Shown here: positions 256 through 62,691 of the stretch, one piece after another | Numbering within the stretch: position 1 is the first letter of the stretch | Layout of the letters: each line of letters starts with the position of its first letter | Assembly (NCBI GenBank): GCA_963843795.1 | Contig: CAWJLW010000006.1 | Span: 3,050,375 to 3,114,374, forward strand | Source of the DNA: an uncultured bacterium | GTDB lineage: Bacteria; Armatimonadota; Abditibacteriia; Abditibacteriales; Abditibacteriaceae | Direction: 5' to 3' | Length of the DNA stretch: 64,000 nt | Notes under the pieces: model-generated | Database searches by the model: none | What the model was told of the DNA's origin: nothing | What the model saw: only the letters and a program-made list of their open reading frames with translations | Translations under genes and position numbers: made by a program

Positions 256-410
256 AATCGAGAAAAGAATTTTGGTAACCACAGCGCTCTGCAAGTACTT
301 GCAGCAAGTGCCTGCCAAGCACAAAAATGCTCATCGAACGGTGAAAAGCACAGCGCATCCTACAACAAAAGGCGTAACGGGCACAAACGCAAAATTTGAA
401 ACACCAACAC

Positions 411-443
411 CAACGCCGCACTGTTAAAAACAGTGCGGCGTTG
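411..443 (-). terminator. Hairpin, probable intrinsic terminator
   Basis: CAACGCCGCACTGTT-AAA-AACAGTGCGGCGTTG inverted repeat just downstream of the 463-1155 gene. Confidence 0.6.
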
Positions 444-462
444 AGAAAGCAGACCGAATTGT

Positions 463-1155
463 TCAGCTATTGTGCGCAGGTTTGGCAACCGACGAGCTTT
501 TTTCCTGTTCCATAACGCCTAAGCGTTCGGCCTGCGCTTTTTGTTCGGGAGTGAGGTTGGGGCGGCGTCCACGCTGCATCGTCGGCGGTTTCACGCCCGA
601 CTGAATTAAAGCGTTGTGCCATGAACCAAAATTTTCGCGACGACGTGCGGCACGATAAATGCCCGGGCAATGCTCTTCGACGGCGGCCCATCCCAATTGA
701 TGACCTGACTCATTCATTTCTTGAATCGTGCGCTGAATGCGCGCTTTTGTCCACACGCGCGTTTCGCGCATTGTTTCATGATCCAAACCAGCGGCCTGAA
801 TCGCGCGGCGCCATGAGCCGAAATAACGGTGCGCGCACGCTGCGAGATACAAATTGCGATGTTTCACTTTGAAGCGCGGATTCAACAAATCTTCACCCGC
901 AGCATGATGCTTGCGAATCTGCTGCAAAATCTCTTCGCGGCTCCATTTTTGCTTGATACGTTTAATACTGTCATATTCCAAGCCTGCTGCCTCAATGGCG
1001 GCGCGCCAGTTGCCGAAATGACTGCGCGAGCGCGCTGATGAAAACAGCGCAGAATGCGTTTGTTGAATAGATGTCGGCGATAAATCGACACCTTTTGCAG
1101 ACAGTTCTTGAATTGTTGAAATCAATTTTTTCCGAGTCCACTTACGTCCGGGCAT
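463..1155 (-). CDS. Protein of three tandem helical repeats resembling the homing-endonuclease-associated repeat; putative DNA-binding, no nuclease domain
   Basis: ATG at 1155 with AGGAG RBS; three ~65-70 aa repeats W(T/S)xxxI...FG(S/N)WxxA(I/L)xx(A/S)G; basic RGRRP tail. Confidence 0.7.
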   Translation of the reverse strand: MPGRKWTRKKLISTIQELSAKGVDLSPTSIQQTHSALFSSARSRSHFGNWRAAIEAAGLEYDSIKRIKQKWSREEILQQIRKHHAAGEDLLNPRFKVKHRNLYLAACAHRYFGSWRRAIQAAGLDHETMRETRVWTKARIQRTIQEMNESGHQLGWAAVEEHCPGIYRAARRRENFGSWHNALIQSGVKPPTMQRGRRPNLTPEQKAQAERLGVMEQEKSSSVAKPAHNS

Positions 1156-1398
1156 GATGTGTTCTCCTAAATTCAAGCGGCACAAGGCCGCTCCTTGGGT
1201 CCTAAGAAAGACCTTGTACTTTGGCTTGCAAAACAGCTTATTCGTTAGCGTTATACTTTGCCTCTCCAAACCTAGCATATCGCACTCTTGAGCCTTTGCA
1301 AGTTATCTGCTCTGACTTGATTTTAACTGTCATCTGTCAAAATTACAAATATTTTTTGACTGTTAAATTAGCACATACGAATTAGCACATAAAACAAA

Positions 1399-1439
1399 AA
1401 ACGCGTTCTCAGTAGGGCTTAACTACTGAGAACGCGTTT
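1399..1439 (-). terminator. Intrinsic terminator of hpf
   Basis: AAACGCGTTCTCAGTAG-loop-CTACTGAGAACGCGTTT hairpin followed by a T-tract on the minus strand. Confidence 0.75.
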
Positions 1440-1499
1440 GAAATTTGAGTGCCGTTGTATCCGAATTGCTTTTGGCTATCAGATCAACTGGCTATTACA

Positions 1500-2108: not shown

Positions 2109-2227
2109 ACGCTTGCCTCCTGAGGAATTTAAAATTGTGTTCTTGTGCAACGTGCCATCGCGGTGCCATCAGCGCCCGCCGAAACAAAATTCGCGGCTGC
2201 AAGTACTTGCTAAAGCACTTACGACGC

Positions 2228-2757: not shown

Positions 2758-3537
2758 TTACTTTTGACTTTCCATCCAGCGCGCCGCACGCTCCAAATCT
2801 TCGGCGAAGGTGATTTTAAAGTTACTTGTTTCGCCTTCGACCAAAGCCACGCGACACAACGTTGCTCTATTCTCATTTTGCGCACGTTCGACCAACGACG
2901 CGCAGTCGGTGCCTTGAAAATTGTCGCGCGCGGCTTGCGCAAAAGCGCTTTTAAAAATGGTGCGCTCGAAAACCTGCGGTGTTTGTGCCAGATAAACGTG
3001 CGAGCGCTCTAAAGTACTTGCGATGAAGTTTCCATTTGCAGCGCTCAATTTCACTGTGTCCGAAACCGGTAGAGCGGCAATCGCGCCGCCACACTCCAGC
3101 GCGGCTTCGATAACGCGCACGATTAATGCGGGCGAAGCCAATGGGCGCGCGGCATCGTGCACAACCACGAAATCGCCGCGTGCGATTTCCACAGCCGCCG
3201 CGACTGAATCCTGCCGTGACGCTCCGCCCCGCGCCAACCGAAAATCGAGAGTGCGACAGTTCATGCTGCAAGTACTTGCAGGAGAGGTTTCCGATTTCAA
3301 AGTGGCAAAAATCGCTTCGACGAGTGGCCATTCGGTTTCTTGCGCCGCGACGATAATTTCTATTAACTCGCAACCGGGTGGCATCGCTCTGGAATGTGCG
3401 AGCGCTTCTAAAGTCCAGCTTAAAACTGCGCGTCCGCACAACGTAGCCAAAATTTTATTACCGCCCAGAGCGGCGCGCGAACCGCAACCCGCAGCGGGAA
3501 TAATGACGGAAATTGTGCACGCTTTCTTTGTATTCAT
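2758..3537 (-). CDS. ispD: 2-C-methyl-D-erythritol 4-phosphate cytidylyltransferase
   Basis: IIPAAGxGSR, GGxSRQDSV, VHDAARP, QTPQVF and NFKITFxEDL motifs. Confidence 0.95.
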   Translation of the reverse strand: MNTKKACTISVIIPAAGCGSRAALGGNKILATLCGRAVLSWTLEALAHSRAMPPGCELIEIIVAAQETEWPLVEAIFATLKSETSPASTCSMNCRTLDFRLARGGASRQDSVAAAVEIARGDFVVVHDAARPLASPALIVRVIEAALECGGAIAALPVSDTVKLSAANGNFIASTLERSHVYLAQTPQVFERTIFKSAFAQAARDNFQGTDCASLVERAQNENRATLCRVALVEGETSNFKITFAEDLERAARWMESQK

Positions 3538-4760: not shown

Positions 4761-4806
4761 AAAGCGCCCTGCAAGTACTTGCCGCGCTGAATTTTAAGAC
4801 AAGGGT

Positions 4807-6432: not shown

Positions 6433-6532
6433 AACCTCATTTTAACACTCAATCGCCGATAAGAAATTCGATTTAGCAAAGAAAACTGCCGCTGCAGGTA
6501 CTTGCAGCGGCAGTTTTCCTTGCCAGCAGATA

Positions 6533-6577: not shown

Positions 6578-7028
6578 TCCGGACGAATCCGGGAGGAAAT
6601 GCAAGCGCGAAGCCTACGGGGAAATTCCCGCTGTGGTGTTCTGCATCTCATTTGCGTAGCACGGCAAGTACTTGCGGGATGCGATATCCACTGGCGGTGA
6701 AGGAAAGGTGAGGAATCACCGTAATTTTCAATTATCCAGCTGAGTTTTTAAGCGGTTTTGGGCGACTTCGGTGAACTGAATGTCAAGTCTGCGCTGATGC
6801 GGGGTATATTCATAATCTGCGCTTGCCCCACATCATTTGGCGATACAAAGATTTTGCGCGGTGAGCGTTTCCAGCGTGTTTCGTCGCGATGTACACGGCG
6901 TGTGTTTCGGGTAAAAGTTTTGTGAAGGCCCGAAAACGTTTCTAAAAGGCTCCTGCAACGAGGACCCAAACATCGTGCCGAATGATAAGATAAAGACCCT
7001 AATTTTGAAGATGTGGCGGAGGAGATTT

Positions 7029-10000
7029 ATGCCTGGTCAGGTTCGGATGAAAGCGTGTTTTGCCTTGTTGAGCGCACTGTTATTGACATGGTGCGGCTCA
7101 CAAGCCCCGGTCGCAAAAGCCCAAACTGTGCCCGCGTTATTGGAAGCGGCTCCAGAAAACGCGGCGCGCGACCTCAATCGCGAGCAGAAACAACAGTTGG
7201 GCGAACTGGCGCGCGTGCGTCTGGCTCAAATTCAACTGGGCACTCTGGCCGCTAATTCGCGCTTGAGCTTGCAGTTGTTTAGCACCACCGTTGTCGCAGT
7301 GCGCAGTGAACTGCAGCAAAATGCCGATGGCGTCCTGTGGCAGGGCGCGATTGCAGGCGATAAGTATTCGAGCGTCACACTTTCGGAAAGCAAAGGCCAG
7401 GTACGTGGCACAATTTACAGCGCAAGCGGCAATTTCACCATTCAACCGCTGCGCGTGAGCGGCGCCAGCGGATTGGCCGCCCGCGCGAGCGGTAGAAATT
7501 TGGTTGCGCTGGGCGAAAACGAAAAACGCTCGCAGCGGGCCGACGACATGGTTTATCCGCAGATAAGCAGTTTTCAGGCGCGCTCGCCATACACAGGACG
7601 CGCAGGCGAAGATGGCAACACCGTCGATATGATGGTGGTTTATGACCGCATCGCCGCTCGCGATGCACCCGACATCGTCGCACAAATTCAGCTAGCCATC
7701 GACGACGCTAACAAGCGTTTTACCAACAGCGAGTCGGTGGCGCGCGTGCGTTTGGTGCACACGCAGATGGTCGAGTATGATGGCGCGGGCGACTTGACGG
7801 TCGATTTACCACGCCTGCGCGATCCTAACGATGGCTTCATGGACGAAGTGGCCGGTTTGCGCGACGAATATGGCGCCGATCTGGTGTTTTTAGTTTCTGG
7901 CGCTAACGACCCGCAATATGGCGGATTGGCTTATGTCATGGGCCAAGGCTTGGTCGGGCCACAATTTGAAAGCGCGGCTTTTGGCACCGTTACGTTGCGC
8001 GACCTGGTTTTCGCGTTCGCTCACGAAATCGGCCACAATCTTGGTTCTTCGCACGATCGCGTTACCAGCCCTAACGCGACACCGGCGTTTCCTTATTCGT
8101 TCGGCTATAGCAACGCGGCCAAAGGTTTTTACACGACGATGTCGTATTCGACCGAGTGTGATAACGCCAACGCGACCTGCCGGGTTATTCCTTTCTTTTC
8201 CAACCCTGACCTGACTTTCAACGACGCGCCCATCGGCGTGGCTGAAGGCGATGCCGCCGCTGCGGACAATCGCAAAACGTTCGCGACCACGGCGGGCATC
8301 GCGGCGGCTTTCCGTCAATCGCGCGCTACCATCAACGTCGAAGACTTTTCGGCCCCCGAAGGCAGCGACAAAACTAACACTTTTTCGGTTCCCATCAGCC
8401 GCACCCAACCGCTGGGCAAGCAATTGAGCATTCCTTATCGTTTTGAAGAAGGAACTGCCAAAGCGGGTGCCGATTACAATGCGACGCCTGGAATTGTGAG
8501 CTTCCTGCCCGATCAGGAAGTGGCCACTATCGAAATTCCCATTGTGGCCGACGACAAATACGAACCGGATGAGAACTTCACGCTTATCATTGGTGCCGAA
8601 GACAGCACGCAGATTCTTGAACAGAAAAGCGTGACTATCACGATTGTCAACGACGACCAACCGCAAATTTCCATCAACGATGCCAGCGTCACCGAAGGCA
8701 ACACTCTCGATACGCCCAAGCTGCCATTCTTGATTTTCGATTTGCAATTGGATGCCGCTTTCGACCAACCGATTAGCGTCGATTATCGCACCGTAACCGG
8801 CACTGCGACGGATGAAGATTTCACCGAGCAGAGCGGAACCATCACATTTGCCGCCGGCCAAACCGTCGCCGCGATCACCGTCGCCGTCACGCCCGATACA
8901 AAAGTCGAGGCCGATGAGAAGATGACGGTGGAACTGGGCAATCCGGTTGGTGCCGCACTGAGCAATGCCAGCGCGACCGGTACTATTATCAACGATGATT
9001 TGCCCGGTTTGCGCGCCGAAGAAATTAAAGTGCGCGAAGGCGGCATCGCCACGTTCAACGTGCGCTTATTGCAACCGTCGCCTTCAACGGTGAAAGTCCG
9101 TTATGCGACTGGCAATGGCACCGCCGCTTCGCCCAACGATTACAACGCCGTCAGCGGCGTTTTGACCTTCACACCGGGCCAGACAACGCAGCAAGTACTT
9201 GTGCGCACTAACGAGGACACGCAGTTCGAAGACGACGAAACCTTCTTTCTGCGCTTTGGCAGCGTGCAGGACGCAACTGTGGTCACGCCCGCAGTGAAAG
9301 CTACGATCATCGACAATGAAAGCAAAGCAACCTTACAGGTCGGCGATGCGCGCGTTGTGGAAGGCAACAGCGGACAAACAATTCTGAGCTTTCCGGTGCG
9401 CTTGTCCAGCGCTTCGCCGGTCGCTATCGCGTTCCGCTACGAAACTCAGAACGGCACCGCGCTGGCGGGCAGCGATTACGAAGCGACCAGCGGCATTTTC
9501 CGCATGGATTCGGGCCAGACAACGGGCCGCATTCAAGTGCGCGTTAATGGCGATGTGGAAATTGAAAGCAACGAAAGTTTCCGCCTGCTGCTTTTAACGC
9601 CGAACAAAGTGCGCTTGTCGAAAGAGTTTGCGACTGGCATTATTCTCACCGATGACATTGACAATACGCCACCGCGCGTGATGCTGAACGACATCGCATC
9701 GAATCAGGGATTCAAAGAATTTCCAACTTTCACCGGCATCGCACAAGACGAAAGCGGCCTAGCTGGAGTCGTGTTGCAATTGCAGCGCGTTTCGGATGGT
9801 GCGGTGTTCAATGGCACCACGTTCGTGCGTCCGCAACTCGGCATCACGCTCGCCACGACCCTACAAATCATCGGTAAATTGCCTTCGGGTATCGGTCAAG
9901 TCGGTCGTTTCACGGTTTCCGATTCGCTTCCCAGCGGCACCGAGGTGAAAGAAGGCGAATATCTGGTGCTGGCGACAGCGGGCGACACTTCGGGCTTGCG

Positions 10001-10388: not shown

Positions 10389-10446
10389 AAGTAGATAAAA
10401 GAAAACGGCCCGCAATTACTTGCGGGCCGTTTTCTTTTATCTACTT
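10389..10446. terminator. Hairpin with 27-bp arms centred on the variant palindrome GCAATTACTTGC; probable bidirectional terminator
   Basis: Perfect arms AAGTAGATAAAAGAAAACGGCCCGCAA / TTGCGGGCCGTTTTCTTTTATCTACTT between convergent genes. Confidence 0.7.
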
Positions 10447-10491
10447 TCGCGTTTCACGAGGTGGCAAGTACTTGCCTACGCACATTGCGTT

Positions 10492-10866: not shown

Positions 10867-10961
10867 AATTTTAAAATTCAAAGCAAAATTTTGGCCCCTG
10901 CAAGTACTTGCAGGGGCCAAAACGGCTTTGCAAGTACTTGCAAAGCGAAATCAAGCAACGG

Positions 10962-13381: not shown

Positions 13382-13570
13382 TCGCACGCGAAATTAAGGC
13401 TGCAAGTACTTATCCTTGTCCTTGCAATTCATAAAAGCCCGCTGCAAGTACTTGCAGCGGGCTTCTGGCTTCTATCTCCAAAATTGGCCATAACGAGTAA
13501 GCTATTCAGTAACAAATTAAGACTATTTTCTGGTGCGGGCAGAGCGCGATTGGCTTGTAGGGAGCGAGTT

Positions 13571-15354: not shown

Positions 15355-16374
15355 ATGAATCAATCGAGTGAAACAAGCGAAAATATCGACGTGCAAAACG
15401 CGGCGGAGAGCGTGGCCAACTCGGCTCGTCCTCTCGCGCTTTTAGCGGCCTTTGCCGTAATTTTGCTGCCATTGTTATTATTCGGTGCCCTGGCCGAAGA
15501 CGTGTGGTCGCGCGAAACCTTCCGCTGGGATTCGCCGCTATTGCAACGCTTTCATGCGCACGCCACGCCCAATTTCGATGCACTGATGCTGCTCGCTTCG
15601 CGGCTGGGTGGCATCACGGTAATGGTGCCGTTTGTGGTGATGATCGCCTTGGTTCTGTGGTGGCGCGGACATCTCCATCAGTCGTGGTTTCTAGCGATTG
15701 GCGTGGGCGGCGCATGCGTTTTCAATATCATCGCAAAAATGATTTTTGCGCGCACGCGTCCCGATTTGTGGCTTTCGATTGCGCCCGAAAACGATTACAG
15801 TTTCCCCAGCGGCCATTCGATGCTTTCGATGGCGGTCATCGCATCGATTTTGTTTTTAGTGTGGCAATGGAAGCTCGCGCGCTCCCTGCAAGTACTTGCC
15901 ACGTTATTTGGCGCGGCATTCGTGGCCTGGGTCGGCTTGTCGCGCCTGTATCTGGGCGTGCATTTTCCGTCCGATGTCATTGCGGGCTGGTGCGCTTCGC
16001 TGGCGTGGGTGAGCGCAGTGCATTTGCTGTGGACGCGCCACGAATCTTTACACGCGGCGCACCAAACGATTCGGCGCGAGTTGCATTTTTTACAATTGTT
16101 GCGCCGCGATGCGCGCACGCCGCGCGCTGCCAAAATTCTGCTGGCTAGCGCCATCGGCTATGTGTTGCTGCCGTTTGACCTGATTCCCGATTTCATTCCG
16201 GTTATCGGGCAACTCGACGACGCCATTATTGTGCCCGCTCTGGTCGCATTGGCGCTGACGCTCATTCCGCGCGAAGCCATTGAAGAATGTCGAACGCAGG
16301 CGACAAAATTGGCCACACAGCAAAACCCAAAATTGCCAGAAAAGAGCGTTGAAGTGGACGCGTTGAAGCGCTAA
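15355..16374 (+). CDS. PAP2-family phosphatase fused to a C-terminal YkvA/DUF1232 domain
   Basis: KxxFARxRP, SFPSGHS, SRLYLGVHFPSDV, then YVLLPFDLIPDFIPVIGQLDD. Confidence 0.85.
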   Translation: MNQSSETSENIDVQNAAESVANSARPLALLAAFAVILLPLLLFGALAEDVWSRETFRWDSPLLQRFHAHATPNFDALMLLASRLGGITVMVPFVVMIALVLWWRGHLHQSWFLAIGVGGACVFNIIAKMIFARTRPDLWLSIAPENDYSFPSGHSMLSMAVIASILFLVWQWKLARSLQVLATLFGAAFVAWVGLSRLYLGVHFPSDVIAGWCASLAWVSAVHLLWTRHESLHAAHQTIRRELHFLQLLRRDARTPRAAKILLASAIGYVLLPFDLIPDFIPVIGQLDDAIIVPALVALALTLIPREAIEECRTQATKLATQQNPKLPEKSVEVDALKR

Positions 16375-18819: not shown

Positions 18820-19037
18820 ATCCGATTCGATTTCAACCTAAAAGCGCATCTGCAAGTACTTGCGAGACTGTTTGTGAGATTTTCATGACGCACTTCAATT
18901 TTTGGCAGCGCACCAAATTTTGTCTCAGTAGCGGGCAGTGCGTTGGAATATTCAACGATTAAGTATTTTATGCACCAGCATTGTGGCCTGACGGTTTCTT
19001 CCAATGGAGTTGGTTTTCAAACCCACTTTTGAGAACA

Positions 19038-20524: not shown

Positions 20525-20620
20525 GCGCGCTTGAACTTCCAAAAGCCGTCTGCGAGTACTTGCAGACGGCTTTTGTGATGAAATCAGGCGTTACAAGGAC
20601 TTGCGACAAGGACACCAATT

Positions 20621-21409: not shown

Positions 21410-21449
21410 TCGCGCGCTGCAAGTACTTGCAGCGTCTTAAAGCACCGAA

Positions 21450-24349: not shown

Positions 24350-24984
24350 AATCTACCGCAAACCGAGAAAAACCTGCTGCTCCCAACTGGCCCCTACTGA
24401 TTTTCGTGGCGATTTGCGCTTTGGGCGCGGGTATCACCGGCACCATGCTATGGATGCAAAGCCGCCAACAAAGTACTTTAGTGCCGATTTCCGACGCGCC
24501 ATCTGCACCTGCAACCACTACAATCACAGCCGCAGAATCGGAGGCCGACGCGCCCTCAACGCACGAACCACCGCCGAATTTGACGGTTGGGCTTGCACCG
24601 CCACAAGCCGCGCTGATGTTGGGCAACTGGTATTACGATCACAAAGTATGGTCGCGCGCGATTGAAAACTATCAAAGCGCGCTCAAAGCAGGCTTGGACA
24701 ACGCCGATGTGCGCACCGATCTGGGCAGTGCGTATCGTTTCAACGGCGACGCAAAAAAAGCGCTGGAACAGTATGCCATCGCCCAAAAGCAAGACCCGAC
24801 GCACGAAAATAGTCTGTTCAATCAAGGCGGTTTATACGCGTTCGATTTAAAACAGCCCCAAAAAGGCATCGAACTCTGGCGCAAGTACTTGCAACAGTTC
24901 CCGACTGGCCAAAACGTCGAACAAGCGCGCCAACTTATCGAAAAAGCGCGCACGCAAATGAAATCGACTGCAAATCAATCGTAA
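24346..24984 (+). CDS. Membrane-anchored TPR protein
   Basis: N-terminal TM segment; LGNWYYD...AIENYQSAL...VRTDLGSAY...ALEQY TPR pattern. Confidence 0.8.
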   Translation: MKSTANREKPAAPNWPLLIFVAICALGAGITGTMLWMQSRQQSTLVPISDAPSAPATTTITAAESEADAPSTHEPPPNLTVGLAPPQAALMLGNWYYDHKVWSRAIENYQSALKAGLDNADVRTDLGSAYRFNGDAKKALEQYAIAQKQDPTHENSLFNQGGLYAFDLKQPQKGIELWRKYLQQFPTGQNVEQARQLIEKARTQMKSTANQS

Positions 24985-25041
24985 AAGCGGGCCGCAAGTA
25001 CTTGCGGCCCGCTTTTCATCACACTTATTTGTGCCACACGA

Positions 25042-39712: not shown

Positions 39713-40075
39713 TTTTAGAATCTGCGGCAGCATCACCCTGTGAAAGCGGGCCGCAGACACAATCCTCGTCGGGCACCTCAATCATAAAAGTATACGGATG
39801 CTGTTCTCAATTTTAACCCTCAAAATTGCTCCTACGATTGATTATATTCTCAAAAAATTAATTTGAAGTTTCTTAAAATTAACTTCGCATATTTTTTGCT
39901 TCGATAGATTTTTCACGGATGTGAAGAAAAGCCCGCTCATTGGCGCAAACCATGAAACCATATTAATTCTCATGGCAAGTACTTGCGGCCAAGTTGTGAG
40001 CTGACGGATTTTTGATATGGCGGATGATTTGCTTTTCCTCGAACATCAACCAAGACAATTTAAGAGGAGAATACG

Positions 40076-40974: not shown

Positions 40975-41028
40975 TTGAAACGTCAAAAGGGCGCTGCAAG
41001 TACTTGCAGCGCCCTTTTGACGTTTCAA
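40975..41028. terminator. 54-bp perfect palindrome centred on GCAAGTACTTGC between convergent genes
   Basis: TTGAAACGTCAAAAGGGCGCT-core-AGCGCCCTTTTGACGTTTCAA. Confidence 0.7.
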
Positions 41029-41276: not shown

Positions 41277-41309
41277 GAGAAACGAGCGCTGCAAGTACTT
41301 GCAGCGTAT

Positions 41310-43718: not shown

Positions 43719-43847
43719 AATGAAATTTTAGCAAATTTGCGCTTGTTCCGAGCCATCAAAGCGGCAACACTGTGGCATATTCACAACAAACGCACTGCAA
43801 GTACTTGCAGCGCGTTTGCAACGTAGTTTTCTTTCAAGATCAATTTT

Positions 43848-45128: not shown

Positions 45129-45198
45129 ATTGAAATCAACCCAAAAGCGCTCTGCAAGTACTTGCAGAGCGCTTTGTCGTTTCTCAAATTGCTTTCTT

Positions 45199-46842: not shown

Positions 46843-46911
46843 AACGCGATCCACTCGATTTCGCTTTTGGTGCACTGCAAGTACTTGCAGTGCACCATTT
46901 GCTATCGTTTT

Positions 46912-47727: not shown

Positions 47728-47891
47728 AATTCTCTCGACCCGCACTTAACACAGCAAACACGATACTTCTTTTCGTTCCATAAGCGAGCCGCACCATTCA
47801 AAGCCCCAGCAAGTACTTGCGATGTATCGCGGGGACTTTGCGAATCCCGAAAACGCGCAAGCTCAAACTTCACAGGAACTAGGAGACACTT

Positions 47892-48398: not shown

Positions 48399-49079
48399 AT
48401 GTTAAAAAAGTTTTTGATTGTGTCGAGTTGTGCAGCGGGCTTAATTTTTTCATCGCAGGTGCCGCAAGTACTTGCACAGCCAGGGCGAACCAATGGTCGC
48501 ACGAACACAAATCAGCCGCGCCCGAACAATAGCAAGCGCCAGTTGCAAAGCCTGTGGAACGGCGTGTGGCGCTTGGAAGGCAGCATGACACCGCTTTCGG
48601 GCGCTCAAGCCAAGCGCATCGTGGCCGCCGTGCGTCCGTGGTCGAGCAAAAGCAGCATGACCGAAGCGCAGGCCAAAAGTTTGGTTTCGACGATTAACGG
48701 TGTTTTGACTCCCTCACAACGCAGCGTCGTTGGCAACTTGAACGAAGGCCCGGGCGGCGGACGTGGACCCGGCGGACCGGGCGGCCGTGGACCCGGCGGA
48801 CCGGACGGCCGTGGACCGGATGGACGTGGACCGGGTGGACCGCCTCCCGGTGGGGAAATGGGCGGACCGCCGCCGGCTGGTGGTCGTGGCGATGGTCCAC
48901 CTCCTGGAGGTGGCATGAATGCCAATGCGATGAAAATGATGGCAACAATGAACCCTTTCTATGCACCGACCGGTTACAGTACTTTCAAAAGCCTGCCTGC
49001 ACGCATGCAAACCAACTTAATGCACCGCTATCAAGAAACGCGCGCCACTTTGGTTGTTTTGTCGCGCAAAGCGGGTTAA
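48399..49079 (+). CDS. Secreted hypothetical protein with Gly/Pro-rich (GPGG/GRGP) repeat
   Basis: AAGGAG RBS, signal peptide, LSxAQAK and LTPSQ helical motifs. Confidence 0.75.
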   Translation: MLKKFLIVSSCAAGLIFSSQVPQVLAQPGRTNGRTNTNQPRPNNSKRQLQSLWNGVWRLEGSMTPLSGAQAKRIVAAVRPWSSKSSMTEAQAKSLVSTINGVLTPSQRSVVGNLNEGPGGGRGPGGPGGRGPGGPDGRGPDGRGPGGPPPGGEMGGPPPAGGRGDGPPPGGGMNANAMKMMATMNPFYAPTGYSTFKSLPARMQTNLMHRYQETRATLVVLSRKAG

Positions 49080-50706: not shown

Positions 50707-50873
50707 ATATTCGCTATCAAATTCATAAATTGCCAAAGCGCTTTGCAAGTACTTGCCATTAATTTGTAATTCGCTGAAAGCTTAATTTCAAAGGGAAATC
50801 GCAATTGCGATTTCCCTTTGAAACTTTCAGTCATTGCCTGCAAGTACTTGCAGGCCACCGAGCACACAAAATT

Positions 50874-53328: not shown

Positions 53329-55485
53329 ATGTGCATTTTCTTTTCTTCTTCCCGCCGCCGCAAGCACCTGCAAGGCTTGGCACAGCAATTTGCCGCGTCG
53401 CAAGTACTTGCCCTTGCTTTGTTCACTTCGTTGGCTGTTCCCGCTCACGCGCAGAGCGCGAGTGCGCCCGACGCATGGGATGAAGCCACGATTGAAACAC
53501 AAATTGAGCGCGGCGATTCGCTTTTCAACGCTTACGATAAACGCGCCTTGCCAATAATTGCAGCAGCTTCGCGCGCTTCCCTTGATGCCCTGAGTGCCAA
53601 TAACGGCGCGAATTTGCTGACCGCTCCACCCGAACGGATGCCGCAAAACGGACCGCTGGCCGCTCTAACAATGCGCGCGGCGCGGGCGCACTTGTTGTGG
53701 GGCCGCGCCGCCGACCGTTTCGCCCAGCGCGATATTTCAATTATGGCTTTGGCGCGCGCTTATCGTTTGGCCGGCGTCAACTTCAACGGCACCAACACCG
53801 TTTCGCGCGATGCGCTGCGTTTATTGAACGCGCAACTGCGTTTGGGCTTGCCGCAGTTTGCTGCCGATGACACCATTGACACGCTTTCAGCACTCGGGCT
53901 GTGGAAACCTCTACGCTTTGGTTTCGCCCTTCCAAACAATGCGCTGGGACCGGGACAAAATAGCGCGCGCAACGTCGATTTGATGATTACGCAGGGCCAA
54001 CTTTTTCCCCCGGAAAAACTCGAAGCGCGCGCAGATGATGACAAAACTCGATTGGCGCCTTTATATCGCAATGTTTCGCCCGATGTGCTGCCGCCAGTTT
54101 TAAAATTGGGTTACATGACGGTTGGTTTCGAGCGTTTGAGCGATGGCCCGAATCGTGGATTGTGGCAGCAGACAGCGCGCGTTTACTATCCGCACTCGCT
54201 CTTCACTCGTGACAACCGCAACGACCGACCGCGCGCCGAAGCCTTGTGTACGCAATTTCTGCGCGTGCGTGCGCTCTGCCGCTACGCGCTGGGATTGGAA
54301 AACAACTACAAAACCGATGGCGTGACCGAGCTTTGGCTTTCAGAAGTTTCCGCGCTGTGGCCCGACGATGATGACGACCTTGAAATGGCCGATTTGCGCG
54401 GCGCTCGTATGCCGCCAGTCAACATCCACGCGCCCGAAAATTTGCCGCCCTCAATCGAACCGTTGCCACTGCGCGCGCCGTGGATGGCGGCGGGACAAAT
54501 CGACAGCGCGCCCGGCGACATCGTGTTTTTCAAAACGGGTCAATCGCGCAGCGAATGGGAATGGCTGCGCGAAATCGCTCACGAATACGGCCACGTCATT
54601 TTGCCGCCCGCTGCGGGTTTTCGTCCGCCACTGGAACCTTATGGCAATGGCGCGCTGGGCGAAACGCTGGCGATGCTGTGGCTCGCGCCCAATGCGACTT
54701 CTTATGAACTCGCCAATATTCTCAAAACTAACACCAGCGCGCCGCGCATCGCAAATATTTCCCCCATCGCCGCGCTGCCGCGTGCGCCTGGGGCGGCGAA
54801 TCCGGCGAACGAGCCACAACCCGTTTGGAATAATTCGCCGCAAGCGATGACATCCGAAGCGCTGGGGCACATTCGCCAGAACGCGCTGCCCGCACTGCGT
54901 TTGTGGAACGCGCAAGGGCCAAATTCGCCGCTGCGCCGTGACACGAGTGTGGCGGGGCTGAATTATTTTCAAGGCTTTGGCGTATGGATCGAACGCGTTT
55001 ATGGCGGCGATATTCTGGGCGCGAGCGCACAAAATTCCTTGCAGCGCACCGTCAATTCCTACGCCTACGATGCGCGTATGACGCCAACTAACACGGAAAA
55101 TTTCCTCAACGATTTTCAGAACTTCATGAAGTCGCTGTGGACAACGCGCAAAGTTTTGCCTTTATGGCTACCGGGCGCGCTGGAAAGCGTGCCGACCTCT
55201 TTACCCGCCGAACAGCTGGCGGCTCGCGCACCGCTCACCTTGCAAAAAGGCGCGCGCGTCGCGCTACGATTTTATGTACCGCCCAACACTGCTCGCCTGA
55301 CTTTGCAGTGGCGTGGCAAAAACGGTACTTTGAAAATCGACGGTTTGAATACGCGCCCCGCACGCGCCACTAGCAGCGAGTTGAGCGCCGCGAGCTTCGA
55401 TTTCACGCAAAATGGCTGGCAGCGTTTGGTGCTGAGCGCAACCGATAACGCGACTTTGATGGGCGCAAGCCTGGAGGCGCGTTGA
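53329..55485 (+). CDS. Secreted hypothetical protein with HExxH zinc-metallopeptidase motif
   Basis: Signal-like AVPAHA; EIAHEYGHVIL followed by a downstream Glu (LGETL). Start uncertain. Confidence 0.65.
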   Translation: MCIFFSSSRRRKHLQGLAQQFAASQVLALALFTSLAVPAHAQSASAPDAWDEATIETQIERGDSLFNAYDKRALPIIAAASRASLDALSANNGANLLTAPPERMPQNGPLAALTMRAARAHLLWGRAADRFAQRDISIMALARAYRLAGVNFNGTNTVSRDALRLLNAQLRLGLPQFAADDTIDTLSALGLWKPLRFGFALPNNALGPGQNSARNVDLMITQGQLFPPEKLEARADDDKTRLAPLYRNVSPDVLPPVLKLGYMTVGFERLSDGPNRGLWQQTARVYYPHSLFTRDNRNDRPRAEALCTQFLRVRALCRYALGLENNYKTDGVTELWLSEVSALWPDDDDDLEMADLRGARMPPVNIHAPENLPPSIEPLPLRAPWMAAGQIDSAPGDIVFFKTGQSRSEWEWLREIAHEYGHVILPPAAGFRPPLEPYGNGALGETLAMLWLAPNATSYELANILKTNTSAPRIANISPIAALPRAPGAANPANEPQPVWNNSPQAMTSEALGHIRQNALPALRLWNAQGPNSPLRRDTSVAGLNYFQGFGVWIERVYGGDILGASAQNSLQRTVNSYAYDARMTPTNTENFLNDFQNFMKSLWTTRKVLPLWLPGALESVPTSLPAEQLAARAPLTLQKGARVALRFYVPPNTARLTLQWRGKNGTLKIDGLNTRPARATSSELSAASFDFTQNGWQRLVLSATDNATLMGASLEAR

Positions 55486-55763
55486 ATTTCGTTTCGCGCA
55501 TAGGGTAAGTGAAATTCGCACTTGGCAAGTACTTGCAGGCCTTAAACTCCTTTTACTGCGTTCTCTGAGAAACGTTTGCGCTTTCCGGGCGAAACGCACA
55601 AGAGTTGCGATAATGTGGTGGCTTCTTTATACTGCTCTGGCTGTGCGAAGTGCAACCTGTTGACTTGTGCTTCGTATATTCTTGGTTGCTGCAAAAGCGT
55701 TGCAATTACTTGCAGAGCCTTTGCCCGCCAGTTATTTAATAAAAATTGAGGAAATTGACCATT

Positions 55764-57171: not shown

Positions 57172-57226
57172 AATCGCGCTGCCCGTACGGCTGCAAGTAC
57201 CTGCAGCCGTACGGGCAGCGCGATTT
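57171..57226. repeat. 56-bp palindrome centred on the variant GCAAGTACCTGC
   Basis: AAATCGCGCTGCCCGTACGGCT-core-AGCCGTACGGGCAGCGCGATTT between co-directional genes. Confidence 0.85.
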
Positions 57227-58445: not shown

Positions 58446-58515
58446 AGCAGAAAACAGCATTGCAAGTACTTGCAACGCTTCTCAGTCACTTTTCAAGCCA
58501 CTTTCAAAAATAAAA

Positions 58516-59586: not shown

Positions 59587-59677
59587 AATCTAAAGAAGGC
59601 GCTGCAAGTACTTGCAGCGCCTTTTTTCTTCATTAAAATTCAGCGAAATGGCATCGCATTGGCTTATGGCCCGTGTC

Positions 59678-60808
59678 ATGTCCAAATCTCAAACTCCCAC
59701 GGTCAAAGACATTCCCGAAATCAAGCCCGATCCCGCACAATCGGCCAAAGAAGCTGGTCTGCGTTATGTTTCCGATGATCGTCCCGGTATCACGCGGCGC
59801 AAGAGCGGACGCGGTTTTTCTTATCGCGATACTGACGACCACATTATCCGCGACAAGAAAACTTTGGAGCGCATCAAAGCCTTGGCGATTCCACCGGCTT
59901 ATACACAAGTGTGGATTTGCCCGCATCCCAAAGGTCACATTCAAGCGACGGGTTTGGACGAGCGCGGACGCAAGCAGTATCGCTATCACCCAAAATGGCG
60001 TGAAGTGCGCGACGAGGCCAAATACGCCCGCACGATGGCGTTTGGACGCGCGCTGCCTTTAATCCGCGAGCGCACGCAAAATGATTTGCGCAAGCACGGT
60101 TTGCCGCGCGAGAAAGTGCTCGCCGCAATTGTGCAACTGTTAGAAAAAACCGCAATTCGCGTCGGCAACGAAGAATATGCCAAAACCAACAAATCGTATG
60201 GGCTGACCACGCTGCGCAACAAACACGTCGAAATCGAGGGCAAAAATGTGCATTTCCATTTCAAGGGCAAATCGAACAAAGTGCACGACATCGATTTGGA
60301 AGACCCAAAACTGGCGAAAATCGTCGCTCAATTACAAGAATTACCGGGCCAACATTTGTTCCAATATCTGGACGAAAATGATGAACGACAGGAAATTGGC
60401 TCGGACGATGTGAATACGTATCTGCAAGAAATCACCGGCCAGCCGTTCACCGCCAAAGATTTTCGGACGTGGACGGGAACAATTTTAGCCGCCTTAGCGC
60501 TGCGCGAATTTGAGAAGTTCGATTCGGAAACTCAGGCCAAGAAAAACATCGTCGCTGCCATTGAAAGTGTCGCCGAACGTTTGGGCAACACGCCGACAAT
60601 TTGCCGCCAATGTTACGTGCATCCGGCGATTTTGGATTCGTATCTCGATGGCTCGATGCTGGAAAGCTTGCAGCAAAATGCACAAGAAGAATGGCAGGAT
60701 GCGTTACAACAATTGCCACCCGAAGAAGCCGCCGTCATGGCACTTTTGCAAAGCAAGTTGTCAGGCGCAAGCGCGAAGCATGGTGTGATTTTCAAGCCTA
60801 AATCATAA
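59678..60808 (+). CDS. DNA topoisomerase IB (poxvirus-like bacterial type)
   Basis: LAIPPAY, GRKQYRYH, IRVGNEEY, FKGKS, AKDFRTW, LGNTP..C..CYVHP (catalytic Tyr). Confidence 0.93.
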   Translation: MSKSQTPTVKDIPEIKPDPAQSAKEAGLRYVSDDRPGITRRKSGRGFSYRDTDDHIIRDKKTLERIKALAIPPAYTQVWICPHPKGHIQATGLDERGRKQYRYHPKWREVRDEAKYARTMAFGRALPLIRERTQNDLRKHGLPREKVLAAIVQLLEKTAIRVGNEEYAKTNKSYGLTTLRNKHVEIEGKNVHFHFKGKSNKVHDIDLEDPKLAKIVAQLQELPGQHLFQYLDENDERQEIGSDDVNTYLQEITGQPFTAKDFRTWTGTILAALALREFEKFDSETQAKKNIVAAIESVAERLGNTPTICRQCYVHPAILDSYLDGSMLESLQQNAQEEWQDALQQLPPEEAAVMALLQSKLSGASAKHGVIFKPKS

Positions 60809-60855
60809 ATCTCTGCCAGAGACTAGCAAGACAATCGCAACTATTGCAAAACCAA

Positions 60856-60885
60856 AAACCGCCACAGCATTTGCTGTGGCGGTTT
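60856..60885. terminator. Bidirectional terminator hairpin
   Basis: AAACCGCCACAGCA-TT-TGCTGTGGCGGTTT between convergent genes. Confidence 0.7.
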
Positions 60886-60919
60886 CGTTTTCATCTCTGC
60901 AAGTACTTGCAGCGTAGTT

Positions 60920-62548
60920 TTAGCGTTCGCCTTGCGCGGGAAAGTCTTGCGCGGGTTCATTCGGCGAAACCGTCGCGGTAATCGGGCCGCCAGTTGGTTC
61001 AGCTTGCGTAGGCAGCGCGGCTTGTCCGGGTTCGGTAGCACGCAGCATTTCAGGTGTGATTTCTGGGTCGGCAGTGTAAGCAGAATCAAGCAAAACGTCC
61101 AAAACACCCGCCGCGCGTGCGGCATCTACGGCTTTGTGTGTAATGAGGTCGCCAGTGTTGAGAATCACGTTGTCGCCTTTATCCAAAATCACGCGTGTAG
61201 TTGGGCGGCCTAATGCATCGTTGATACGCTTTTGCTGGGCTTGCGCATCGTAGGCTTCTTTTTTGTCGTGCGCCGATTCGCTCAACTCATGGGCCTTTTC
61301 CTTCACGGTGTCCCACAAATTGCCCGCGCCTTCTTTCACAGTTTGCGCGCCGCTCGACACGCTTTCGCTGGCCGCGCCCAGACCGGCTGCGGCGATAACC
61401 TGATTTTCTTTACCTTCGCGTTTAGCACGATCCATTGCTTCTTGCGTAACGATCATTCCGGGCGTGACGATAATCGAGCCATCGTCGGAAGTAACTTCAC
61501 GCGCCACAGGTTTGCCAATTGCGGCTGCTTCGGCGCGCGATTGGGCGTTGCCGCCGTGTTCGCCCGCCAAGTCGCCGACGCGCTCTTTGCTCGAATCGTA
61601 AGCGCCCACGACGGTGCCGCCGCCGGCGGCCAGAACCAGGCTGCCCAGAATGTCGGCGGCAATCGCGCGATCGGCGTGTTCAGCGGTAATAGTTTCGCCC
61701 TTGCGCACTAACACCGCGCCATCGACCGGTTCGCCACTGGAAGAAACATCGGTACTGCCCGCCATCGTCGGTGTGTTCAGTTCCAGAATTTCGCTGTCGC
61801 TCACCATACCGCCGCTTTCTAACTCGCTAGTCGCGGCCAGTTCGGGCGAAGTTTTTTCAGCAGGAATAATCACATCGTGCGAAGATGTTCTGCCGATGAC
61901 AAATTCGCGCTGCTTCTCGACTGAAGCACTGGCGATGTTGGAGTAGGTTTCACTGACTTTATCGGCAGCTGTCGCATACGTTTCGCTGACCGCACCCGCG
62001 GCACTCGCAGTTGCGCCTTTGAGGCCGCCCGGCTCTTCTGCTTTCTGCTTTTCCATCTGGGTTCCCACTTCGGGCGGCACCAAAGCGATGTCTTCGCCCA
62101 GGGTGAAGCTTTCGGGAACGGGCATATAATGACGGCCCGACATCGCATCCGAGAACAGACCGCCCGAGACTTCGTAACCAACGATGTTGCCGTCATTATC
62201 GAAGTAAATGTCGGAAAAAGTGCCTAAATCTTTGCCATCTGTGGTGTGAATCGGACGACCGACCAGCGTGTTTTCGCCTTCCAACTCTTCAGCGATTCGC
62301 GGATCATCGTGCGCTTTAATCAAAGCATCACGCCCGCTCACCATCACATCGTCTTTGCCGATCACACGCACAGCTTCCCAAGGCACGACCTGAGCATCTA
62401 TTAAACCAAACAATTCTTTTTCCGAAACCAACAAGCCCAGTACACGGCTAGTTTCATAATCGAAAATAAGTGTTCTGACTGCACCTAAATCGGCTCCATC
62501 CGACTGACCGATCACTTTTAAGCCCGACATTGATTTACCTTTACGCAT
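60920..62548 (-). CDS. PRC-barrel domain protein
   Basis: Two N-terminal PRC barrels ([34 protein letters not shown]); AAGGAG RBS. Confidence 0.8.
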
Positions 62549-62691
62549 AATTTTCTCCTTTTAGAATCGTGTTTCTCTACTTTCTCAACAGCTTTTTAAA
62601 TAGTTATCTGGTGCGTTGTATTAGTTGATTGTTATGTCTTCTAAAGCCACAACAGCCAAACGCCCTGCAAGTACTTGCAGGGCGTTTAGAA

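Follow-up and report, generated by a model that had tools for sequence, protein, structure and literature searches.

A 12-bp palindrome, GCAAGTACTTGC, recurs throughout the genome of an uncultured member of the Abditibacteriaceae, where it forms the core of a palindromic site that is spaced evenly and flanked by A/T in phase with the helix. We suggest, with moderate confidence, that this site is a species-specific self tag used in natural transformation, where a putative uptake or recombination protein would read it on double-stranded DNA in a sharply bent form, because its spacing is even, its A/T flanks are phased with the helix and related genomes hold versions of their own.

The window, i.e. 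the whole 64-kb stretch of DNA analysed, contains 41 exact copies spanning positions 291 to 62678, the number given in an earlier note on this DNA, and none occurred in any of 100 dinucleotide shuffles. The same note mentioned about 12 near copies; such copies do exist, but 15 were counted, eight with one mismatch and seven with two, and since base shuffles yield 0.17 and 2.5, respectively, the two-mismatch class is partly chance. According to the gene calls, 35 of the 41 exact copies are intergenic (26 tandem, 5 convergent, 4 divergent) and 6 lie in genes, and the earlier figure of about 33 at all junction types agrees with the 33-35 obtained by varying gene calls and start-codon choice, on which the placement of copies 53400 and 50840 hinges. 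Copies inside apparent operons were also rightly noted (21419), as was the copy in the B12 riboswitch leader (25352), which lies outside the Rfam aptamer. The features of the window are as follows (no strand applies; "exact" denotes an exact copy of GCAAGTACTTGC and "one-mismatch" a copy of the 12-mer with one mismatch):

291..302, exact, tandem spacer
2199..2210, exact, tandem spacer, 17 bp past the ispF stop
3268..3279, exact, in ispD by Pfam span; the gene caller set a later start
4771..4782, exact, tandem spacer 3' of radA
6494..6505, one-mismatch, hairpin centre
6664..6675, exact, divergent spacer
9191..9202, one-mismatch, in gene
10412..10423, one-mismatch, hairpin centre
10464..10475, exact, convergent spacer
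10889..10922, perfect 34-bp palindrome, terminator-like, centred on exact 10900-10911
10930..10941, exact, second copy in the spacer of 10900-10911
13435..13464, perfect 30-bp palindrome centred on exact 13444-13455
15888..15899, exact, in gene, QVLA frame
18852..18863, exact, tandem spacer
20552..20563, one-mismatch, hairpin centre
21419..21430, exact, 40-bp spacer within an apparent operon
24881..24892, exact, in gene, KYL frame
24983..25016, perfect 34-bp palindrome centred on exact 24994-25005, A-run left, T-run right; predicted RNA fold -27.7 kcal/mol, z -7.4
25352..25363, exact, cobalamin-riboswitch leader, downstream of the Rfam aptamer 25082-25299
27405..27416, exact, tandem spacer
28655..28712, perfect 58-bp palindrome centred on exact 28678-28689, convergent genes either side; predicted GUAC tetraloop hairpin, -48.3 kcal/mol, z -12.8
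29023..29034, exact, in alaS, QVLA frame; 3-residue gap in the alignment with the G006 orthologue
29731..29742, one-mismatch, in alaS
30154..30165, exact, in alaS, QVLA frame; orthologues gap-free here
31387..31418, perfect 32-bp palindrome centred on exact 31397-31408
32815..32844, perfect 30-bp palindrome centred on exact 32824-32835
33923..33934, exact, divergent spacer
36475..36508, perfect 34-bp palindrome centred on exact 36486-36497
39034..39045, one-mismatch, in gene
39409..39420, exact, in gene, QVLA frame
39975..39986, exact, tandem spacer
40975..41028, perfect 54-bp palindrome centred on exact 40996-41007, convergent genes; predicted fold -44.7 kcal/mol, z -12.1
41291..41302, exact, 33-bp tandem spacer
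43797..43808, exact, divergent spacer
45144..45175, perfect 32-bp palindrome centred on exact 45154-45165, convergent genes
46868..46897, perfect 30-bp palindrome centred on exact 46877-46888
47809..47820, exact, divergent spacer
48464..48475, exact, in gene; contig of public run X1 (48096-48569) identical
50745..50756, exact, tandem spacer
50840..50851, exact, in the spacer of 50745 or the next gene's first codons
52123..52134, exact, tandem spacer
53400..53411, exact, spacer or the next gene's first codons
55525..55536, exact, tandem spacer
55702..55713, one-mismatch
57193..57204, one-mismatch, hairpin centre
58462..58473, exact, 5' of prfA
59596..59623, perfect 28-bp palindrome centred on exact 59604-59615, 3' of prfA, followed by a T-run; z -7.2
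60899..60910, exact, convergent spacer
62658..62687, perfect 30-bp palindrome centred on exact 62667-62678

The whole 4.3-Mb genome holds 2,567 copies where 0.07 would be expected, and these are found on all 11 contigs of the assembly, at 0.63/kb on the chromosome and 0.07-0.56/kb on the remaining 10. Around the chromosome the copies are spread uniformly (chi-square p 0.74), for which reason the SlmA-like role considered earlier is unsupported. Recently acquired DNA is poor in the motif: IS islands and plasmid-like contigs have few copies, and five large motif-poor stretches, once annotated, proved to hold IS clusters, a type I RM island, a gene cluster for contractile injection, the backbone of a plasmid and a stretch of higher GC. 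The 16S gene has no copy. Copies do occur on two small contigs that resemble phages or plasmids, which counts against a self tag. The intergenic share is 70%, density is 15-fold higher between genes than inside them, and convergent spacers are the densest (4.3/kb). Spacers of any length contain about 0.6 copies each, and neighbours 100-500 bp apart occur at half the random frequency, which is regained at 1 kb. Furthermore, in-gene density falls from 0.36 to 0.21 and 0.13 per kb as 0, 1 or 2 of the flanking spacers bear a copy, a gap filling that amounts to 2.7-fold more in-gene copies where the spacers of a gene are without the motif.

Within genes, 753 of 850 synonymously permissive positions (89%) are filled by GCAAGTACTTGC, and the encoded peptides QVLA (564 observed, 38 expected) and ASTC (133 observed, 3.9 expected) are strongly enriched. 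Orthologue alignments are gap-free at 39 of 51 in-gene copies, showing an origin by substitution, and in three other assemblies the central bases of the motif change least. In-gene positions in common with the related genome G009 are largely due to amino-acid permissiveness, which counts against a self tag: the two 8-mers give 6/9 versus 5/13 (p 0.39), and AGTACT gives 7/17 versus 17/169 (p 0.002).

The flanks, held in the earlier note to be unshared, in fact have in common CT..AG, arms rich in GC, A/T tracts 8-10 bp away and a wave that follows the helix, and 12 of the 41 exact copies in the window sit at the centre of perfect hairpins that extend them by 8-23 base pairs. The wave is a two-fold symmetric 10.5-bp AT/GC alternation that extends about 100 bp to each side, in genes too, with AT peaks near ±15, 25.5, 36.5, 47 and 57 from the palindrome centre. 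At 648 in-gene sites its amplitude is 3.95/1.83/1.5, as compared to 0.42/0.39/0.44 in matched controls, and the flanks are symmetric irrespective of transcription direction and, in genes, in all three frames. The amplitude is 7.5/3.9 in the present genome but only 1.8/1.2 and 1.6/0.7 in two other carrier species known from metagenomes, which counts against a self tag; G007 and G018 offered 16 and 15 sites, too few to gauge the wave.

Words of this kind were found in 10 of 27 Abditibacteriaceae genomes, as AGTACT-cored dialects, a 24-bp dyad and the non-palindromic CAGCCACG, and in none of the stretches sampled from the other 17. CAAAGTACTTTG is the exclusive dialect of G001 (1,231 copies) and TCGAGTACTCGA that of G009, G015 and G019 (2,770, 2,510 and 2,261 copies), whereas CAGCCACG occurs in three of the 27 genomes at about ten times its control, equally on both strands. 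The 66 copies of CAGCCACG in G016 include 10 inverted pairs, which are REP-like in appearance, as is the 24-bp element of G006, and the 10-mer core of the palindrome appears about once per kilobase in contigs of two other species. No description of the 12-mer was found in the literature searched, in line with its earlier designation as unfamiliar, and the helical wave, the gap filling and the non-palindromic dialect were measured in the present analysis. Overall, the earlier observation is confirmed and proves larger than described, although the take-over of terminators, the dialects and the phased flanks had been overlooked; its interpretation is partly supported, as a protein site for uptake or nucleoid organisation remains the best reading of a genome-wide iterated word that is neither a transposon body nor a CRISPR repeat.

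If the site is a self tag, a protein would bind it, and the wave would favour bending in one plane, the tip of the bend being the central TpA, so as to fold the DNA into a loop able to pass the secretin. Biased uptake together with homologous recombination (molecular drive) would copy site and flanks alike into the resident DNA, and this would go on until about one site per kilobase suffices; more tentatively, the GTAC core might be methylated. The same genomic traits appear in descriptions of DUS and USS (PMC2817400, PMC2397512, PMC7811141, PMC3630211), bent AT tracts accompany stronger uptake of USS, and HIP1 is reported to increase transformation. ComEA, ComEC, DprA and secretins were detected in all five genomes tested and PilB in 26 of the 27, and the genome has a full set of competence genes; these are present in carriers and non-carriers alike and do not track the motif, which counts against an uptake tag. 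Comparison of 20 pilus loci revealed no receptor, as the four minor pilins and the PilY1-like gene are found both in carriers and in non-carriers and none is short and basic, and the literature searched held no uptake data for the Abditibacteriaceae.

Even spacing and phased flanks suit a chromosome-organising protein, the main rival, equally well. It is possible, if rather doubtful, that an abundant two-fold symmetric nucleoid protein binds the palindrome, bends or wraps about 100-200 bp and pins the tip of a loop or plectoneme once in about 1.6 kb, regular spacing being selected. The dyad symmetry of the wave, its height above in-gene controls, its phase, which is that of nucleosomes, the gap filling, the constant number of copies per spacer and the filling of 89% of permissive positions all favour such a protein. 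However, a histone fold is absent from all 27 genomes, and HU is encoded in all 27, carriers or not. HU geometry places A/T at ±10-12, positions that are GC-rich at these sites. In addition, 17 of the 27 relatives have no such word in the sampled stretches, specificity differs between close genomes, one dialect is non-palindromic, and two carrier species have only a weak wave.

A HIP1-type repeat, in which a candidate orphan methyltransferase marks GTAC or AGTACT and methyl-directed repair or recombination creates and keeps the palindrome, seems unlikely. An orphan beta-class adenine methyltransferase gene is located at C6:2517368-2518135, with close homologues (E<=1e-45) in 21 of the 27 Abditibacteriaceae genomes, among them each of the 7 GTAC-type carriers, and in none of 274 other genomes of the phylum, and it is missing from the three sampled genomes without GTAC depletion. 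Moreover, +1 frameshifts are in excess at AGTACT (15/640, 4.1 expected) and at other GTAC (16/1,309, 8.4 expected), 67 central one-base insertions occur in the present assembly only, the 13-bp variant of the motif being probably an artefact, and the edges of the motif vary more than its centre, as in HIP1 (PMC4390886). The family-specific enzyme and the assembly errors at AGTACT are a live hint that the core may be methylated. A repeat made purely by methylation or repair, as proposed earlier, is unsupported, because no C5 methyltransferase, which Elhai's model requires, was found in three of five carriers tested (the present genome G000, G001 and G012), and because the gap filling and the 200-bp wave are unexplained by a mutational process; the wave is not clearly present at 90 HIP1 sites of a Nostoc plasmid either (1.3/1.75, null 95th percentile 1.7). 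The adenine methyltransferase is also as common and conserved in non-carriers purged of GTAC, its losses fall mostly within one clade and therefore are not independent, and CAGCCACG has no GTAC.

We consider it very unlikely that a transposase spread a REP- or MITE-like element, or that an RNA hairpin was selected at transcript ends. The intergenic bias is in accordance with this, as are the elements of G006 and G016, the clustering of non-hairpin tandem copies within 30 bp 3' of stop codons, and the long hairpins that make up 62% of the convergent copies. Nevertheless, 477 hairpins have 278 distinct 9-mer arms, i.e. no common body, and this diversity, the substitution origin of the 753 in-gene copies and the symmetric flanks largely refute it for the present genome, where the Y1 transposase match is only partial (none in G006). 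Of the 874 long perfect inverted repeats of the genome, 525 are centred on GCAAGTACTTGC; on the self-tag reading, terminators would adopt the 12-mer because it has zero cost as a hairpin loop. That the copies are strong gyrase sites, with phased arms wrapped by the GyrA C-terminal domains, is scarcely plausible. In E. coli, the gyrase motif is symmetric, spans 130 bp with a 10.75-bp GC periodicity, and gyrase accumulates downstream of transcription units (PMC6379681), which fits the motif density of convergent spacers; its consensus A/T positions (17-21, 38-40, 48-52 and 60-63 from the dyad), however, are out of phase with those found here (14-16, 35-37, 46-48 and 56-58), it is degenerate with no 12-bp word, and GyrA is single and of similar length in carriers and non-carriers (5/5). 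An assembly or library artefact has a negligible probability: the assembly is frameshift-rich (609 events in a coding-frame scan), but the 753 in-frame coding uses, the public contig that covers copy 48464 without difference, the 10-mer core in two other species and the dialects in nine other genomes refute it.

Among known systems, the self-tag reading has its closest parallels in DUS of Neisseriaceae and USS of Pasteurellaceae, which, in the sections of the literature consulted, reach 0.80-0.89/kb (PMC2817400) versus 0.6/kb for GCAAGTACTTGC and likewise show even spread, substitution origin, peptide enrichment, low frequency in genes, in rRNA and in newly acquired DNA, a place in terminator hairpins, a fixed core with dialects that differ between species and, for USS, A/T tracts adjoining the core. 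The known DUS/USS cores are non-palindromic, whereas most Abditibacteriaceae dialects are palindromic; the symmetric wave out to about 100 bp does not figure in those sections, no ComP- or ComN-like receptor was found, and the present system belongs to another phylum, Armatimonadota, with only 10 of 27 family genomes carriers as sampled. Cyanobacterial HIP1 (GCGATCGC) and alternate HIPs are likewise short iterated palindromes in genes and spacers with a better-kept centre, an orphan methyltransferase conserved in their lineage and a proposed role in transformation (PMC4390886, PMC13756078, 10.1101/2024.09.10.611283). Unlike HIP1, GCAAGTACTTGC is 12 bp long and AT-centred, prefers spacers, occupies terminators, has strongly phased flanks, which the 90 HIP1 sites did not clearly show, and occurs in a genome in which no C5 methyltransferase was found, and related genomes hold a non-palindromic dialect. 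REP/BIME and REPIN repeats with their RAYT transposase are palindromes that lie between genes, close to stop codons or where two genes converge. GCAAGTACTTGC shares these locations but differs in a conserved body of at most about 16 bp, hundreds of in-gene substitution copies and no convincing RAYT. The E. coli gyrase motif resembles the site in its dyad symmetry and in a GC period of approximately 10.5 bp that spans more than 100 bp (PMC6379681). It differs in phase and lacks an exact core. SlmA, MatP and Noc sites are palindromes of 12-13 bp to which dimeric chromosome proteins bind, with tens of copies per genome whose distribution follows ori/ter. The SlmA site, as quoted in the earlier note, has AGTACT in common with GCAAGTACTTGC, which in contrast is present in thousands of copies and uniformly distributed.

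The palindrome GCAAGTACTTGC, which has an AGTACT centre and a GTAC core, occurs in 41 exact copies in the window and in none of 100 dinucleotide shuffles, which bears out the count in the earlier note; the near copies that it had put at about twelve are also present, although in a different number (eight with one mismatch, seven with two). In the genome that holds the window (G000; 4.30 Mb, 11 contigs), 2,567 copies were found against 0.07 expected from an order-3 Markov model of the masked genome, and the top 8-, 10- and 12-mers are pieces of the 12-mer or the 12-mer itself. On the chromosome contig (C6), which was divided into 17 segments of 200 kb each, its density of 0.63 per kb is even (p 0.74 by chi-square), and with no bias towards origin or terminus a SlmA-like role is not supported. 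Homologues of one G000 protein bear the labels Abditibacterium utsteinense, Abditibacteriaceae and Armatimonadota, by which the genome is placed. In line with the novelty claimed earlier, no published description of the 12-mer or of an AGTACT palindrome in Abditibacteriaceae was found in the literature outside subscription papers.

Our own gene caller (3,511 genes, with approximate starts and frameshifts in the assembly) places 753 copies within genes and 1,805 between them. Densities reach 4.3 per kb in convergent, 3.1 in tandem and 1.8 in divergent spacers and 0.20 in genes, and spacers of at least 40 bp hold about 0.6 copies each regardless of their length, with a variance below the mean. 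The ribosomal protein cluster carries 0.52 copies per kb, the 16S gene none, and a 4-kb 23S region, which may reach beyond the gene, two. The exact 12-mer is missing from 40 stretches longer than 6.5 kb; five of these were annotated and contain clusters of IS elements, an island with a type I RM system, genes for contractile injection, the backbone of a plasmid and DNA of 63% GC. A contractile-injection cluster (L141, G000:C3:2600-18000), with genes for sheath, tube, baseplate, Pvc16 and an AAA ATPase, sits in a 32-kb stretch entirely devoid of AGTACT, which marks it as a recent acquisition. On a plasmid-like contig, four nested perfect palindromes (G000:C4:10125-10330), each with GTATATATAC at its centre, form a possible origin or protein-binding array. 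Additionally, G000-type copies with full flanks are present on two small contigs from metagenomes (L238, L253) whose ORFs resemble those of phages or plasmids and have no match among the G000 proteins.

Regarding the origin of the copies, 51 in-gene sites were aligned to relatives; 39 alignments are gap-free and no four-residue insertion recurs among the 51, and the insertion of a 12-bp cassette and target-site duplication were rejected. The peptide QVLA occurs 564 times in G000 versus 38 expected and ASTC 133 times versus 3.9, while permuted control peptides stay at or below their expected counts, and 753 of the 850 synonymously permissive coding positions are filled. Together, these findings indicate that the 12-mer was written by substitution and that the proteome was altered in the process.

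The copies are also spaced more evenly than expected. Gaps longer than 3 kb make up 9.7% of the total, compared to 12.4±0.36% in 200 runs with randomised in-gene copies and 13.2±0.39% in 200 runs with permuted spacer occupancy. Genes with 0, 1 and 2 occupied flanking spacers contain 0.36, 0.21 and 0.13 copies per kb (n = 579, 1,321 and 706), and those shorter than 1 kb contain 0.36, 0.19 and 0.05. Pairs 100–500 bp apart occur at half the random frequency, which is reached at 1 kb, and the pair distances have no periodic peak. The pair depletion and the filling of gaps suggest that a further copy is worth less when another lies within about 1 kb of it.

Many intergenic copies lie at the tips of hairpins. 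Of the convergent copies, 62% extend into a perfect palindrome by at least 7 further pairs, compared with 24% of the tandem, 9% of the divergent and 2% of the in-gene ones. Among the 874 perfect inverted repeats of G000 with arms of at least 13 bp, 525 centre on the exact 12-mer, and 53 of those whose arms are separated by a spacer centre on a one-mismatch copy. The arms are diverse (278 different 9-mers among 477), and for four hairpins of the window, with A-runs on the left and T-runs on the right, the predicted folds have a GUAC tetraloop (z -7 to -13). We read the long 12-mer-centred hairpins as putative two-way intrinsic terminators that took up the word. At least 13 hairpins centre on two abutting 12-mers (for example C6:373255, 759261 and 2705927), which suggests inverted duplication at hairpin tips.

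The flanks, held to be unshared in the earlier note, follow a common pattern, with CT/AG adjoining the core, GC-rich arms, an A-tract at -10 to -8, a T-tract at +8 to +10 and, beyond these, a two-fold symmetric wave of A/T and G/C. The pattern is symmetric irrespective of transcription direction, is also seen within genes for each of the three frames, and is missing at QVL codons without the motif. A+T peaks near 15, 25.5, 36.5, 47 and 57 bp from the dyad (best period 10.5), and the period lengthens to 10.75–11 farther out. In windows of 20–62, 41–83 and 62–104 bp, with controls matched for A+T at ±13 to 17 and for coding state, the amplitude is 3.95, 1.83 and 1.5 at 648 in-gene sites (controls 0.42, 0.39 and 0.44; largest of 20 controls 0.82, 0.76 and 0.96) and 3.95, 1.91 and 1.2 at 1,627 intergenic sites (controls 0.36, 0.30 and 0.22). 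In a related genome, G009, it is 3.5, 2.2 and 0.5 at 425 sites with nearly the same phase, and in two high-GC metagenome carrier species the wave is weak (1.8/1.2 at 337 sites, 1.6/0.7 at 373) and in the same phase; the samples from G006, G007 and G018 (51, 16 and 15 sites) are too small to judge. Cyanobacterial HIP1 (90 sites from 150 kb of Nostoc plasmid) gives 1.3 and 1.75 versus a null 95th percentile of 1.7, and a 90-site sample of G000 gives 7.5 and 4.0. The phase, which is that of the nucleosome, implies a smooth bend through the centre, where the central TpA would be kinked towards its major groove. The wave adds a physical handle: selection would act on bent DNA spanning up to 200 bp and not on a word alone, and this would predict what the reader protein must do.

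Related genomes use different words. The exact 12-mer occurs 0–3 times in each of 40 relatives, and AGTACT reaches 2,813–4,733 copies in 6 of 301 genomes of the phylum, all Abditibacteriaceae, many other members of which have only 1–33; no genome outside the family exceeds 1,197, where the control reaches 1,002. The survey of relatives that had been proposed revealed such dialects in nine other genomes of the family. CAAAGTACTTTG has 1,231 copies in G001, while TCGAGTACTCGA has 2,770, 2,510 and 2,261 in G009, G015 and G019 and none in G001, and the dialects are mutually exclusive among the counted genomes. G012 uses a looser form, GAGTACTC, and G006 a 24-bp dyad, AGTACGGTCG-AWWT-CGACCGTACT, about once per 1.3 kb (120 kb sampled). 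The non-palindromic CAGCCACG, which does not share the AGTACT-type core, has 2,676–3,503 copies, about ten times the control and equally on both strands, in G007, G016 and G018 only, among 27 genomes (36+/30-, 11+/11- and 9+/8- in sampled stretches); around it the G016 wave amounts to 5.7 on the left and 6.8 on the right (51 sites). Ten inverted pairs were found among 66 copies in G016 and one each in G007 and G018, where copies are seldom paired, unlike in G016, whose paired GACACCAGCCACGTCC copies flank a small inner hairpin in the manner of REP doublets (L071, L095-L097, L160). In the other 17 genomes of the family no iterated word was seen in samples of 3–107 kb each.

Metagenome contigs of about 60% amino-acid identity and 60–70% GC carry CAAGTACTTG about once per kb (80 of at least 132 loci covered). 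In G009 and two metagenome sets, the central bases change in at most 2% of cases and the outer ones in up to 13%. Of 43 in-gene G000 sites, 6 are in exact register with a G009 site, but once both proteins must permit the word, register sharing exceeds chance significantly only for AGTACT (p 0.002) and not for the 8-mers (p 0.39). A 16-mer scan of all GTDB genomes gave at least 36 loci, with 35 singletons among the matches listed, and a scan of viral sequences gave six singletons, which are uninformative on phages of this host. A single-gene RF1 tree was discarded for ordering dialect gains and losses, its backbone being poorly supported. Dialects also allow contigs to be assigned to species: L046, a contig of 2.9 kb that bears the title of a Gemmatimonadaceae MAG but looks like Abditibacteriaceae DNA, with three exact 12-mers and one at its edge, is probably mis-binned. 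Possible likenesses are those to the PurR/LacI operator and the IHF core, that of the G006 half-site to the H. influenzae USS, and that to E. coli Chi inside the G016 word.

We give about an even chance to the reading that the 12-mer tags DNA for uptake or recombination, is recognised on bent DNA and owes its spread to molecular drive. ComEA, ComEC, DprA and secretins are encoded in 5 of 5 genomes tested, carriers and non-carriers of a word, PilB in 26 of the 27 genomes of the family, and ComM in G000, where the assembly has frameshifts in pilC and two further pilus genes and 58 prepilin motifs were found. Secretin matches number 6–8 per genome in all five genomes, and three secretin-domain genes lie in tandem at G000:C6:710263-715501. 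No pilin tracks the motif in 20 pilus loci, the same four minor pilins occurring in carriers and non-carriers. A bending nucleoid protein bound at the 12-mer is a less probable reading, though a serious one. The wave is what such a protein might read; HU is present in 27 of 27 genomes, carriers or not, and a word that is patchy, switches fast and has one non-palindromic form would suit a tag for recognising kin better than an essential part of chromosome architecture. The search for genes whose presence follows the motif, as had been proposed, returned none among the families covered, with competence, pilin and HU genes in carriers and non-carriers alike; a Pfam scan covered about 250 of the 3,511 called G000 proteins, and visual inspection of the small basic proteins yielded no reader candidate. 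Two genes of the window may be mentioned here.

463-1278, minus strand: basic protein carrying a pair of PF18780 HNH-associated repeats, in which no nuclease domain was found; a possible DNA-binding protein
59612-60808, plus strand: gene for a type IB topoisomerase of the bacterial kind, next after prfA

That the 12-mer is a repeat made by methylation appears improbable. An orphan beta-class adenine methyltransferase is present in 21 of 27 Abditibacteriaceae, including all seven GTAC-type carriers and also non-carriers almost without GTAC, and in none of 274 other genomes of the phylum. Three sampled genomes with GTAC at 0.80–0.87 of expectation, all of one clade, do not have it, and G016 has none, yet its GTAC is at 0.08. 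The enzyme has no conserved neighbour in 21 loci and no informative homologue in plasmids (two at 34.5%) or phages (none), and a second resident N6 methyltransferase is found in only 3 of 27 genomes. A PabI-type GTAC glycosylase was found in 0 of 27 genomes, and a search for the ScaI endonuclease in five genomes gave no match, nor did its control.

Assembly errors bear on the same question. A homology-based frameshift map of G000 yielded only 29 events. In the assembly, +1 frameshifts fall at 15 of 640 AGTACT sites (4.1 expected) and at 16 of 1,309 other GTAC sites (8.4 expected), with no excess at seven control hexamers. In nanopore data, consensus errors are known at methylated motifs (PMC6591954). 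The pile-up at AGTACT may be a hint of methylation. A 13-bp form, GCAAGT-W-ACTTGC, with an extra central A or T (66–67 G000 sites, such as C6:396803, 694191 and 2281743), was ruled out as a second functional site, because three other assemblies lack it while they hold 376, 439 and 371 copies of the exact 12-mer, and because +1 frameshifts coincide with 7 of the 7 copies that allow a test; it probably represents consensus errors, which possibly mark a modified base.

GTAC is nearly purged (0–0.04 of expectation), often along with CTAG, in sampled loci of nine genomes (G005, G008, G011, G014, G018, G020, G022, G024, G042), which have 1–19 AGTACT each and no PabI-type enzyme found. In two further families of the phylum, f11 (g17) and f34 (g56), most genomes contain 0–11 AGTACT beside controls of 250–800, without the Abditibacteriaceae methyltransferase. 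G000 itself avoids many 6-bp restriction palindromes (CGGCCG 0.17, GTCGAC 0.18, GGGCCC 0.19, CGATCG 0.20), beside very few methyltransferase genes found.

The uptake tag, the nucleoid-protein site and the methylation-made repeat are not mutually exclusive. In a further, speculative and rather doubtful reading, a dimeric protein would read the species-specific palindrome, possibly only with GTAC methylated, and fold about 200 bp of pre-curved DNA into one loop tip per roughly 1.6 kb; so that every kilobase retains a tip, the genome would be rewritten even where proteins pay for it in their sequence, and the bent tag may also serve as a handle for the uptake of kin DNA.

Among known systems, Chi and KOPS have a strand polarity along replichores, whereas the 12-mer is palindromic and CAGCCACG is balanced on both strands, and the even density (p 0.74) differs from the terminus restriction or exclusion of SlmA, MatP and Noc sites. 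Histone-bound chromatin is set apart by the histone fold PF00808 (0 of 27 genomes; search control positive in three archaea), and the E. coli gyrase consensus (PMC6379681) by the phase of its arms relative to the dyad. The 12-mer does not have the 20–40 bp extragenic body, spread by insertion, of REP/REPIN elements, and RAYT (Y1) gave one partial match in G000 (E 4e-7), none in G006 and several in the non-carrier G002. About 13 same-strand repeats starting AACAAGGCGCTGCACCCGACCGCC, 0.5–1.5 kb apart and attC-like (L064, G017:C44:100001-120000), look like a long integron cassette array, which was left out of the composition table.

HIP1 and the alternate HIPs are closer, as highly iterated short palindromes in genes and spacers. 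Their C5-cytosine methyltransferase (GmeC model; PF00145) is absent from G000, G001 and G012 and present in G009 and G006 (genomes 63–93% complete), and a candidate for a methyltransferase acting within the palindrome is the family-specific orphan enzyme, beside the error hot-spot at AGTACT. PMC13756078 reports that HIP1 improves transformation in a way that depends on methylation.

The closest likeness is to the DUS and USS of naturally competent bacteria. PMC2817400, PMC2397512 and PMC7811141 describe sites at 0.8–0.9 copies per kb that are evenly spread, arose by substitution, enrich the peptides they encode, are rare in rRNA and newly acquired DNA and are used in terminators, with bent AT tracts that help uptake and a site kinked on secretin entry; PMC3630211 describes dialects. 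Correspondingly, the 12-mer of G000 occurs at 0.63 per kb, more evenly than random, arose by substitution with enrichment of the encoded peptides, is scarce in newly acquired DNA and 16S and lies in terminator-like hairpins (525 of 874 long inverted repeats), and the species dialects share a conserved core, CAGCCACG excepted; the competence machinery is encoded, but non-carriers have it too. Membership is not claimed, because the core is palindromic in G000 and non-palindromic only in the CAGCCACG of three relatives, and because the receptor and uptake function are putative. Nevertheless, the shared traits, the aid that HIP1 gives to transformation and the patchy switching favour the uptake or recombination tag. 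Two families of Proteobacteria have established sequence-specific uptake tags, and the role of HIP1 is still open; Abditibacteriaceae would add a third, unrelated lineage, in which carriers and non-carriers stand side by side with at least six dialects, a natural experiment on the origin, switching and loss of such words and on drive versus selection.
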